Origin: a virus
Length of the DNA: 6,965 nucleotides
UHGV virus genome: UHGV-0228105
Reading direction: 5' to 3' (one strand)
Shown: piece after piece, positions 3,061 through 6,965 of the stretch
Numbering within the stretch: position 1 is the stretch's first letter
Layout of the letters: each line of letters opens with the position of its first letter
Notes under the pieces: generated by a model
Told to the model about the DNA's origin: nothing
The model's input: the letters and a program-made list of their open reading frames with translations, nothing else
Databases searched by the model: none
Made by a program: the position numbers and the translations under genes

Positions 3061-3300
3061 ACCTCTCCCCCTCTACCCCTTCTACCCAGCACCACCAAAA
3101 GCCAGCAATGGCGCACCTTTCAGCAGGGTAGAGGGCTTTTAATCCCCTTCTACCCGCCCTCTACCTGTCTACCTGGAATTGATAAAATCAGGTAGAAGAG
3201 GTAGAGGGCTTTTATTAGCCTTCGACCTGGCCCTCTACCCACCTATCATATTGAATAATATATATTTATTTACTTCAGGTAGAGGAGGTAGAGGGCTTTT
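3061..3300. repeat. Iteron array with AT-rich core: candidate origin of replication
   Basis: At least 11 copies of a 9-mer family in both orientations. GGTAGAGGGCTTTT occurs at 3127-3140, 3200-3213 and 3287-3300; degenerate copies GGTAGAAGA at 3191-3199 and GGTAGAGGA at 3278-3286. Inverse copies CCCTCTACC at 3069-3077, 3157-3165 and 3231-3239; CTTCTACCC at 3079-3087 and 3147-3155; TCTACC at 3168-3173. A 30-bp almost pure AT stretch lies at 3245-3275. The array ends 9 nt from the primase stop codon. Confidence 0.6.
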
Positions 3301-5815: not shown

Positions 5816-6038
5816 GGTGTACCCCTCCGCATTTTTTTTCGTTAGAAATAAGCGTTCTTCTTTCCTGTTCATCGCTCAGGAATACGCAGACCTCACCGCT
5901 AAGGCGTTTAAGTAAGCCGATGATTGCCCCTGATTCGCTGTCGGTCATCATGCCAGGGTAATCCTCTGCCAGTGCGCAAATAACTTCGATTTGGTGGGCG
6001 CGTTCTGCTGCCTGTTGTAGTGTGATTTCCTGGCTCAT
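5805..6038 (-). CDS. Hypothetical small protein (77 aa from the proposed start)
   Basis: ORF-track ORF 5805..6095. Start placed at the ATG at 6038-6036 (MSQEITLQQAAERAHQIEV...), preceded by AGGAGGT at about -8 and overlapping the upstream stop as ATGA. Confidence 0.55.
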   Translation of the reverse strand: MSQEITLQQAAERAHQIEVICALAEDYPGMMTDSESGAIIGLLKRLSGEVCVFLSDEQERRTLISNEKKCGGVHHVQ

Positions 6039-6229
6039 AAGCCTACCTCCTGACGAATACGGGCGGCAAATACAGCAACACAACCGGACGGGCAACGGTT
6101 ACGCGCTTCGCGTTCCGTCCAGGCGGTTACGTGGATGATTTGAGATTCTCCGGCACTCAGGGCCAGAAAACGCCACACAAAGGCCGTTTGTGTGTGTGCT
6201 AGTCGTGGAGTATGATTTACGGCAACCAT
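6035..6229 (-). CDS. Hypothetical small protein (64 aa), first gene of the minus-strand operon
   Basis: ORF-track ORF. GAGAGGT Shine-Dalgarno ~9 nt upstream of the ATG at 6229. Contains a Cys pair (RNRCPSGC). Lies ~95 nt downstream of the predicted promoter. Confidence 0.5.
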   Translation of the reverse strand: MVAVNHTPRLAHTQTAFVWRFLALSAGESQIIHVTAWTEREARNRCPSGCVAVFAARIRQEVGL

Positions 6230-6308
6230 AAATTTACCTCTCTATAGTGTTTGTGGTTAGAGGCCCTGCTAGTGGTAGCGACACTTGCGGGGCTTTGCAT
6301 TTATGAAC

Positions 6309-6361
6309 CCTGAGCAGCTCAGGTGTGGCCCACTATATGTTTTAGGTGTGGCCCACGTCAA
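6309..6361 (-). promoter_or_regulatory. Control region: predicted sigma70-like promoter for the minus-strand operon, overlapped by a perfect palindrome and two 13-bp direct repeats
   Basis: On the minus strand: -35 TTGACG (plus 6356-6361), 18-nt spacer, -10 TATAGT (plus 6332-6337). Direct repeats AGGTGTGGCCCAC at 6321-6333 and 6344-6356, each containing GTGG-N-CCAC, with 23 bp between starts. Perfect palindrome CCTGAGC-A-GCTCAGG at 6309-6323, at or just downstream of the predicted start site. Confidence 0.45.
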
Positions 6362-6422
6362 GGGTTTTATTTGCGCTTTTTCTGTGTATACTGTCCCCCA
6401 CCAATCAACAGGAGAAACAGCA

Positions 6423-6602
6423 ATGGCAACGGGTACAACAAACGCAAAATCACAAGCTTTAAAGGCTCGTGTACCGCATGAAATAGTTGACGCAATGGAA
6501 TCAGTGAAAGACTCAGGCGAAAGCACATCACAATTTATCATTACGTCAATGCAAGGCGAGATCAAACGCCGCCAGCGCCGCAAGGCCAAAGAAGCGGAAT
6601 AA
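6423..6602 (+). CDS. Small ribbon-helix-helix (CopG/Arc-like) DNA-binding protein, 59 aa; candidate repressor
   Basis: ATG at 6423 preceded by AGGAGA (6410-6415, 7-nt spacer). Sequence MATGTTNAKSQALKARVPHEIVDAMESVKDSGESTSQFIITSMQGEIKRRQRRKAKEAE fits strand (LKARVP), helix (HEIVDAMESVKDSG), helix (STSQFIITSMQGEI). It is the only plus-strand gene, divergent from the operon and convergent with alpA. The overlapping 153-aa minus ORF (6269..6730) is judged spurious. Confidence 0.55.
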   Translation: MATGTTNAKSQALKARVPHEIVDAMESVKDSGESTSQFIITSMQGEIKRRQRRKAKEAE

Positions 6603-6690
6603 TCCACCAGCAAACCACCACACTGATCACATTGCCCACCAGCCAGCAAATCGCTATGATGTTCGGGCTTATGTTTAGTGTTTTCCCATT

Positions 6691-6721
6691 GGCGACCTCT
6701 GATCCGGGTCGCCTTTGTTTT
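6691..6721 (+). terminator. Rho-independent terminator downstream of the RHH gene
   Basis: GGCGACC (6691-6697) / GGTCGCC (6707-6713) form a 7-bp perfect stem with a 9-nt loop, followed by TTTGTTTT (6714-6721). No U-tract on the minus-strand side, so it is unidirectional. Confidence 0.5.
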
Positions 6722-6740
6722 ATGTGTCATATGCTCCCCT

Positions 6741-6965
6741 TTACGCTGCCTTACCTGAATTAATGCGATCCCGGCTTTTAACCCATTCCATAACCTCGGA
6801 CAGCAGCCAACCTACAGAACGACCGCCCAGATTAAGGCGTGACGGAAATCGCCCTTTTTTCTCCAGTTCGTAGCGTGTAGTACGGCACACTCCAGTTAAC
6901 TTACGACATTCATCCTCACGGATTACGCGATCTGATAGTGATTGAAATTGTGTATTTTGATTCAT
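6741..6965 (-). CDS. alpA: AlpA-family (MerR-type HTH, excisionase-like) transcriptional regulator
   Basis: Translation contains the AlpA-type core CRKLTGVCRTTRYELEKKGRFPSRLNLGGRSVGWLLSEVMEWVKSR (compare the recalled pattern L-x-R-S-T-I-Y-x-L-x-x-G-x-FP-x-P-x-x-LGGR-x-V-GW-x-x-SE-V-x-x-W). The ATG falls exactly at the window edge (6965-6963), so the true N-terminus could lie outside the window. Confidence 0.85.
   Translation of the reverse strand: MNQNTQFQSLSDRVIREDECRKLTGVCRTTRYELEKKGRFPSRLNLGGRSVGWLLSEVMEWVKSRDRINSGKAA

Follow-up and report, generated by a model that had tools for sequence, protein, structure and literature searches.

A ribbon-helix-helix gene with its own operator-like boxes as candidate repressor of an internal early promoter in Gram-negative phage-inducible chromosomal islands

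UHGV virus genome UHGV-0228105 is a stretch of 6,965 nucleotides (the whole of which we call the window) and belongs to a Gram-negative phage-inducible chromosomal island (PICI). Almost all of its genes lie on the minus strand and read leftward. One gene, placed between alpA and an Icd-like gene, reads the other way and encodes a 59-aa protein of ribbon-helix-helix (RHH) type (Table 1). A preliminary description, made from the letters of the window alone, had picked it out as the only plus-strand gene, divergent from the early operon and convergent with alpA, and had put it forward as a candidate master repressor, in an arrangement resembling the stl type. The geometry held throughout: the gene diverges from the operon that the Icd-like gene opens, converges on alpA, and is the sole conserved or annotated plus-strand gene in the equivalent part of related islands. 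The role that our sequence comparisons support best is a narrower one, in which the protein would repress an internal early promoter and regulate its own gene, and would be neither a switch acting on many promoters nor a relative of Stl.

Table 1. Features of the window around the RHH gene and in the leftward operon. Leftward features are given on the minus strand.
Feature	Position	Strand	Details
alpA	6741–6965	minus	PF05930 (Phage_AlpA family), E = 2e-16; convergent with RHH gene
Intrinsic terminator of plus-strand unit	6691–6723	plus	GGCGACC, 9-nt loop, GGTCGCC, then TTTGTTTTAT
Two Chi sites	6604–6611, 6636–6643	minus	GCTGGTGG on minus strand; CCACCAGC on plus strand
YlcI/YnfO-family gene, 59-aa RHH protein	6423–6602	plus	ATG 6423, TAA 6600–6602
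Shine-Dalgarno AGGAG	6410–6414	plus	8 nt 5' of ATG; read directly in the sequence
Box R3 (CTGTCCCCCACC)	6391–6402	plus	Degenerate third copy; covers predicted start site of RHH gene transcript
Candidate −10 (TATACT) of the RHH gene's own promoter	6387–6392	plus	Conserved position; not called by consensus scan
Box R2 (AGGTGTGGCCCAC)	6344–6356	plus	Within spacer of leftward promoter, abuts −35
Sigma-70-type promoter of Icd-like/primase operon	6332–6361	minus	TTGACG 6361–6356, 18-nt spacer, TATAGT 6337–6332; 10/12 matches
Box R1 (AGGTGTGGCCCAC)	6321–6333	plus	Overlaps end of leftward −10 and predicted start site
153-aa antisense open reading frame	6269–6730	minus	ATG 10 nt past alpA stop, behind GGGGAG
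Structured 5' leader of leftward operon	6230–6325	minus	Hairpin A arms ~6262–6269 and ~6287–6294
Icd-like gene	6035–6229	minus	NF033153, E = 5e-18; first gene of leftward operon
Small open reading frames, next DUF4222 gene		minus	After Icd-like gene, leftward
P4/D5-type primase	5057–3309	minus	
PerC homologue; start of capsid/protease fusion gene			Also in window

The plus-strand gene belongs to the YlcI/YnfO family. Residues 9–50 of the protein matched NCBIfam model NF041551 with 68.4 bits (curated cut-off 30; E = 4e-19), RefSeq gives its homologues the same name, and the protein also matched phrog_949 (E = 5e-23). Pfam and PDB sequence searches with the protein gave no match, and DNA and protein searches of 50,697 phage records found no homologue of the island subfamily. 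Homologues are spread across many Enterobacterales, and the same gene arrangement recurs in 39 loci from 18 genera. They share the invariant residues R16, P18, E33 and F38 and an invariant tail, EIKRRQR; the basic tail GEIKRRQRRK of the 59-aa protein is invariant as well. In 22 close pairs, codon positions 1, 2 and 3 differed by 25, 17 and 184 nt, respectively, in the ylcI frame. This test cannot separate the two strands, as the third positions of the ylcI and antisense frames coincide, and BLOSUM scores were used instead; substitutions had a mean BLOSUM62 score of +0.04 in the plus frame versus −0.8 to −1.3 in the five other frames. Third-position bias together with conservative substitutions in the plus frame makes this open reading frame (ORF) more than a chance one. 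Thus, with the family model passed and the arrangement shared so widely, the gene of the preliminary description is real and conserved. The copy in the island EcCICFT073 bears a late-added RefSeq locus tag, and the RefSeq label is that of a family without known function. In Yersinia pekkanenii the homologue (L035 532–864) is 110 aa long and has its basic C-terminal helix internally duplicated (EIARRQ ... EIKRRQRKK).

A single-chain AlphaFold2 model of the 59-aa protein (pLDDT 90.9) has an N-terminal strand, predicted at about residues 10–17, and two helices (residues 19–28 and 35–58), and is structurally similar to solved RHH domains. On this model the RHH (Arc/MetJ/CopG) fold can be assigned confidently. 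Residues A12, K14 and R16 are predicted to face the DNA, and hhalign set them against Q9, N11 and R13 of Arc, in a weak alignment with a probability of 20%. Those three Arc residues contact bases in the Arc–operator structure. In this monomer model DSSP does not close the strand.

The region of 190 bp between the RHH gene and icd contains the best sigma-70-like site of the whole window, the promoter of the Icd-like/primase operon. Across genera, both its −35 ([GT]TCAA on the plus strand) and its TATAGT are kept. A perfect 13-nt direct repeat, AGGTGTGGCCCAC, occurs on this promoter as boxes R1 and R2. The third box, R3, lies at the candidate promoter of the RHH gene itself, where most of 42 gene copies have TATACT or a near variant equally far from the ATG. 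In other loci R3 matches the core of R1 and R2 of the same locus (for example GTGGCCCACC in L003–L005). The boxes have the general form GGTG-N-CAC, and the layout of three is common to the 39 loci, while their 5-nt core varies. We distinguished 16 core types, and the copies within a locus agree. R1 is inverted relative to R2 in some loci, and the reverse-complement cores TCGGA and TCCGA share one strand peptide; both observations fit a symmetric dimer on a pseudo-palindrome. A scan of the window and of two complete islands found the box only in this one intergenic region.

The type of box co-varies with the part of the protein that is predicted to read it. Median identity over residues 11–15 was 100% for pairs of loci with the same box versus 20% for pairs with different boxes. 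The flanking proteins showed no such association (same versus different box, 41% versus 45% for Icd-like and 33% versus 37% for AlpA), and Icd-like proteins at least 94% identical to each other adjoin three different box types. Mutual information per column was of no use, since lineage leaves nearly all columns correlated, and was replaced by pairwise controls and partial Mantel tests. Over the 16 types, box distance correlated with residues 12 and 14 (Mantel r = 0.42, P = 0.0008; partial Mantel r = 0.41, P = 0.0002, controlling for residues 18–52) and was uncorrelated with residues 11, 13, 15 and 17 (r = −0.02). Residues 12 and 14 lie on the face that carries the invariant R16. Core TGGCC, for example, goes with A12/K14 and core AAATA with M12/T14. 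Genomes with two copies carry two different pairs of box and peptide (L007, L018 and L017, a Pectobacterium). An alternating signal specific to one face is what would be expected of a DNA-reading beta-ribbon and is one that linkage by itself does not easily account for. The Mantel result, confined to one face, and the decoupling of the Icd-like proteins argue against linkage as the whole cause, short of proving binding.

Gene and boxes are also replaced together. EcCICFT073 holds a module identical to that of the window, with the same boxes and a protein that is ~92% identical, and H23 carries a different RHH allele. The corresponding slot of E. coli BH100N contains a different 59-aa RHH-patterned protein (L043 2819–2998) with repeats of its own, TGTGTAATG and CATTACACA, and is flanked by the conserved leader on one side and by conserved Chi motifs and the terminator stem on the other. 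An O157:H7 island has a related RHH-patterned ORF of 57 aa in the same slot (L046 2816–2989), unannotated in RefSeq and accompanied by two copies of a palindrome, ATGGTAATTACCAT. These two genes look unrelated to the RHH gene of the window. Other RHH genes, each with its own repeats between conserved flanks, show that regulator and sites are exchanged as a unit, like the immunity regions of temperate phages.

The placing of the boxes bears on how far the influence of the protein would reach. It could bind them and yet have an effect confined to its own neighbourhood, regulating its own gene or serving to activate or insulate the plus-strand unit (the gene together with the cargo genes that other islands carry before alpA), with little influence on a life cycle that AlpA alone controls. 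Such a role would agree with the absence of the box elsewhere in the islands and with the heterogeneous co-oriented ORFs that stand between gene and terminator in 18 of 42 gene copies. It would agree, too, with published work in which overexpression of AlpA alone induces excision and replication of EcCICFT073, an island with the same module. Two of the three boxes, however, lie on the leftward −10 and start and in the spacer, a repressing position, and not on the gene's own promoter, and the RHH gene always diverges from an Icd-like first gene. We therefore regard a purely local role as rather unlikely.

The Icd-like gene is the first gene of the operon in 41 of 42 gene copies examined, and the RHH gene diverges from the Icd-like/primase operon in all loci examined. 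The RHH protein might be imagined as the antitoxin half of an addiction module, restraining the Icd-like division inhibitor or some downstream partner and so stabilising the island. Against this, the two genes are divergent and not co-transcribed, and we saw no sign of neutralisation between proteins. Type of Icd-like protein is uncoupled from type of RHH protein, which is unexpected for a cognate toxin–antitoxin pair. The preliminary description had noticed no toxin partner downstream, and rightly so: no toxin-like gene follows the RHH gene in the window, and the co-transcribed adjacent toxin of type II systems is missing. An addiction module is an improbable explanation.

Between the leftward promoter and icd, the operon begins with a structured leader. 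Its order is a two-part hairpin A, an invariant CUCUAACCAC and a second hairpin around the Shine-Dalgarno sequence of icd. An alignment of 25 distinct loci showed compensatory changes at 9 of 14 pairs; 88% of the leader cells were paired versus 30–46% in slid controls, and none of 500 shuffles reached the observed level. No Rfam family matches positions 6230–6325, and this leader may represent a cis-regulatory element of a new kind. The possibility that an immunity RNA, C4/CI or isrK, precedes icd was rejected, as covariance models found no C4 or isrK RNA in the window (E up to 1), in 12 related loci (gathering score) or in the O157 island (E up to 0.1). Two further hairpins resemble terminators on the minus strand. 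One, at 6174–6194, lies ~35 nt into the Icd-like coding region (CACACAAACGGCCTTTGTGTG then GCGTTTTCTG), is also found in BH100N and may be an attenuator. The other, at 6451–6471, lies antisense where the RHH gene encodes its variable strand, and is probably there by chance.

On its other side the plus-strand unit ends in an intrinsic terminator. The hairpin (6691–6713) has 8 pairs, 6 of them G-C, and is followed by the T-run TTTGTTTTAT. Its fold has an energy of −16.2 kcal/mol on the plus strand and of −15.1 kcal/mol on the minus strand, where it has no U-tail. The element GGCGRCC-N6-GGYCGCC-TTTGTTTTAT occurs 104–467 nt past the stop of the gene in at least 14 loci, with compensatory variants of the stem (GGCGACC/GGTCGCC, GGCGGCC/GGCCGCC and GGCAGCT/AGCTGCC). 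BH100N has a different loop and the same stem. These compensatory changes turn the overlapping antisense peptide GR into SC; a stem kept while the antisense peptide changes points to selection on the structure. With its G+C-rich hairpin, U-run and conserved structure, the element is a rho-independent terminator by sequence, and the preliminary claim that the gene ends in a unidirectional terminator of its own is upheld, since the U-tail is present on the plus strand only. A stringent terminator scan reported a site in 12 of 41 downstream regions, a figure that overlooks imperfect stems and the more distant conserved hairpin.

Nothing lies between the RHH stop codon and the terminator in the window. 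Elsewhere the RHH gene and alpA are separated by a variable gap (0.14 to ~2 kb) with heterogeneous co-oriented ORFs, which follow the RHH gene and precede the conserved terminator in the 18 copies noted above. Where such cargo ORFs separate the gene from alpA, the terminator element sits beyond them. This fits a terminator of the whole plus-strand unit, which would shield alpA and int from antisense transcription. The ORFs of the gap include a conserved arginine-rich one of ~57–62 aa in CFT073 (L045 15243–15416) and O157 (L046 3032–3220), and one in Superficieibacter (L007 ~11450) looks BrnT-toxin-like by eye only. The gap may be a small cargo hotspot.

Transcription from the alpA side would not be stopped here, because the hairpin has no U-tail on the minus strand. 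The path that it would follow contains a long open frame. In the window, this antisense ORF crosses first the terminator and all of the RHH gene, next the boxes and promoter, and it ends in the leader. Equivalent frames of 235–409 codons are open in about half of the loci, often in frame into the Icd-like gene. In O157:H7 the frame forms an ORF of 314 aa that comes from the alpA side and joins the Icd-like gene in frame (L046 2488–3432); the Prokaryotic Genome Annotation Pipeline (PGAP) lists this ORF as an Icd-like pseudogene and has no RHH gene there. Across the RHH gene, the antisense frame was free of stops in 40 of 41 distinct genes, versus an expectation of 0.30–0.47 per gene from the YlcI amino-acid sequences; with one representative for each of the 16 box types, the joint probability was ~1e-7. 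Selection thus seems to keep a translatable path across the repressor gene, which lends indirect support to the idea, raised in the preliminary description, of read-through from the alpA side; the switch by transcriptional interference that it also raised would be a further step.

Such long open frames, the pseudogene annotation and the inability of the codon-position test alone to separate the strands could also be taken to mean that the real feature is a long minus-strand ORF or transcript from alpA to icd, comparable to eta, with the RHH gene as its by-product. The substitutions speak otherwise: they are conservative in the plus frame only and not protein-like in the antisense frame (mean BLOSUM62, −0.98). 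The plus frame passes curated hidden Markov models and folds confidently as a known DNA-binding fold, the antisense ORFs match no Pfam family, and the compensatory changes of the terminator hairpin alter the antisense peptide. We consider it very improbable that the RHH gene is a by-product.

The stretch downstream of the gene is also rich in Chi. Over 41 distinct stretches of 250 nt we counted 14 sites versus ~2.9 expected, and the sites also encode 'AGG' in the antisense ORF. The sites may shield island DNA, as it replicates or once packaged, from RecBCD, or may merely reflect these antisense 'AGG' codons. The window as a whole has five Chi sites on the minus strand and one on the plus strand, those outside this stretch being at 777, 2657 and 4009 (minus) and 4270 (plus). 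That the hairpin or the gap serves for packaging, as a cos site, with the small protein as an accessory, is scarcely credible: the hairpin does contain GGCGACCT, with 8 of 12 cosN bases, and in K-12 a perfect lambda cosN separates ylcI from the divergent nohD, but no match to cosN (GGGCGGCGACCT) within 3 mismatches was found at 6600–6740, the stem varies like that of a terminator, and EcCICFT073 has its two perfect cosN sites ~7 kb off, at the late end.

The arrangement suggests how the island might be kept quiet and then released. A dimer of the RHH protein would bind its three cognate boxes through the N-terminal beta-strand (residues 12, 14 and 16). When bound, R1 and R2 would cover the −10 and start and the spacer next to the −35, repressing the promoter of the operon from the Icd-like gene to the primase, and R3 would cover the start site of the RHH gene, giving autoregulation. 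The division-inhibitor-like gene and the replication genes would thereby be held off in the quiescent island. Gene and boxes would constitute a swappable cassette of immunity type with many specificities, by which co-resident islands would avoid cross-regulation. This cassette lies between alpA and the operon, within the path from one to the other but on the strand opposite to both. Once a helper phage turns on alpA, transcription from the alpA side would pass the one-directional terminator and its transcript, translated as it goes, would run antisense across the repressor gene into the operon, bypassing the repressed promoter. Convergent transcription would probably lower the synthesis of repressor.

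We infer DNA binding, repression rather than activation, and read-through with interference each from sequence. That an RHH dimer represses the internal early promoter and its own gene, with read-through from alpA as a bypass, we judge moderately probable. We are more doubtful of a bolder proposal, which we offer tentatively: that Gram-negative PICIs, EcCICFT073 included, possess a protein-based immunity switch that had gone unrecognised, a hypervariable RHH cassette of at least 16 specificities set antisense inside a translated read-through path from alpA to replication, where helper-induced expression of AlpA would overrun and silence the repressor gene and bypass the repressed promoter. This would amount to a protein counterpart of the RNA immunity of P4 in the form of an excludon-like toggle by convergent transcription, and its range of specificities would confer heteroimmunity on islands in the same cell.

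Several observations weigh against the repressor with its bypass. The third box is degenerate in both the window and EcCICFT073, the RHH gene's own promoter has no recognisable −35, and the spacing of R1 and R2 (23 bp) is wider than in classical cooperative RHH operators. As the boxes are within 100 bp of the gene, the association of box and peptide is partly simple linkage. Foldseek and PDB sequence searches with the protein returned nothing, and the alignment to Arc is weak at its probability of 20%. The antisense frame is continuous with the Icd-like gene in only about half of the loci, and that of the window stops 40 nt before the icd ATG. Finally, since AlpA overexpression suffices in EcCICFT073 with the identical module, the RHH protein is not the sole gate, and its repression would be either bypassed or weak.

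If the proposed repressor is real, it would explain why the division-inhibitor-like and replication genes are silent without AlpA, and it would offer a direct handle on how islands carried by a large share of E. coli genomes stay quiescent and are induced. It would also provide a natural set of at least 16 small orthogonal pairs of repressor and operator. A testable function is hereby assigned to the YlcI/YnfO family, whose RHH gene automated annotation sometimes swaps for a long antisense 'pseudogene'.

The islands that house the module are common. A megablast match to 6230–6760 was present in 671 of 5426 complete E. coli genomes, and complete relatives of the window are islands of ~10 kb with an integrase adjoining alpA. 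Directly downstream of the primase gene, at 3066–3300, an iteron (GGTAGAGGGC / GCCCTCTACC) occurs in at least 10 copies in both orientations around AT-rich stretches; this region is very probably the replication origin of the island, and it yielded spurious microRNA-like matches in Rfam. The operator boxes were considered as replication iterons and rejected, since the origin-like iterons GGTAGAGGGC differ from them in sequence and lie elsewhere. The int-alpA RNA motif of Rfam (RF02996) was found between int and alpA in three loci (L003 8893–8961, L012 8461–8529, L016 8910–8975), a position that falls beyond the window.

Stl proteins, to which the preliminary description had likened the gene, are helix-turn-helix (HTH) proteins unrelated to the RHH fold. 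The likeness in layout is genuine: the Stl/Rpr regulators of Gram-positive PICIs (Staphylococcus aureus pathogenicity islands, SaPIs) are likewise small DNA-binding proteins whose genes diverge from the excision/replication operon, next to int (PMC6092414), and the RHH gene shows this divergence. Stl, however, reads in the same direction as int; the RHH gene is followed by int and alpA on the other strand, and searches of Pfam and PDB found no sequence relation of its protein to Stl/Rpr. Stl is lifted by a protein of the helper phage, and the published trigger for EcCICFT073 is AlpA. The boxes of the window stand at one promoter region only. What survives of the stl-type master repressor is thus the divergent geometry, with three boxes on the leftward promoter and the gene's own start that co-vary with residues 12 and 14; mastery over the island is not supported, given boxes in a single region, an RHH rather than HTH fold, an int that is not co-transcribed and the induction of EcCICFT073 by AlpA alone. 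The preliminary description had also said that enterobacterial islands are described without a dedicated repressor, and the literature agrees: no repressor is known for Gram-negative PICIs (PMC6092414), and the authors of the EcCICFT073 work state that its repressor is unknown. A search of the literature, outside subscription journals, found no paper on a repressor for these islands, on this module of EcCICFT073 or on the function of YlcI.

The name-givers of the family, YlcI of DLP12 and YnfO of Qin in E. coli K-12, match the same NCBIfam model and have the same strand-helix-helix pattern. They are only ~14% identical to the window protein, and they adjoin the cos site and a small-terminase homologue of lambdoid prophages, not alpA and icd. 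In DLP12 (L002 6447–6834) the perfect lambda cosN is 200 bp upstream of ylcI, which diverges from nohD, and an inverted repeat, ATCAATTA-N14-TAATTGAT, stands in front of ylcI. In prophages, members of the family may have a regulatory task at the cos end.

Two phage immunity regions offer parallels. Arc and Mnt, of the P22 immI region, are small RHH repressors whose operators overlap divergent promoters, and Arc reads DNA via the beta-strand residues Q9, N11 and R13. In the immI region of P1 (c4 RNA, icd, ant), icd is first in an operon under a dedicated immunity factor. The window joins features of both, with an Arc-like register (in the weak alignment given above) upstream of an Icd-like first gene. 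It differs in that no sequence-family relation beyond the fold was detected and in that it belongs to a satellite island rather than to a phage. It has three boxes, belongs to a type with at least 16 specificities, and carries its gene antisense inside a read-through ORF.

Phage P4 has the same order of elements as the window: a homologue of AlpA (Vis), a long, translationally coupled ORF over an internal early promoter, a short nested product and a P4-type primase (PMC10111431). The elements of P4 that we compared were PLL, vis, eta/kil, PLE, CI RNA/seqA and the alpha primase. In its left operon, eta is coupled to the alpA homologue and spans both the internal promoter and the immunity region (PMC10111431), and that internal promoter is the target of the immunity factor. 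P4 immunity is exerted by the CI RNA, which acts on termination; the window has instead an RHH protein gene on the opposite strand, with putative operators on the promoter. A repressor and operator cassette of RHH type would be unexpected in its place, antisense in the path from alpA to replication of Gram-negative PICIs, for which no repressor has been described.

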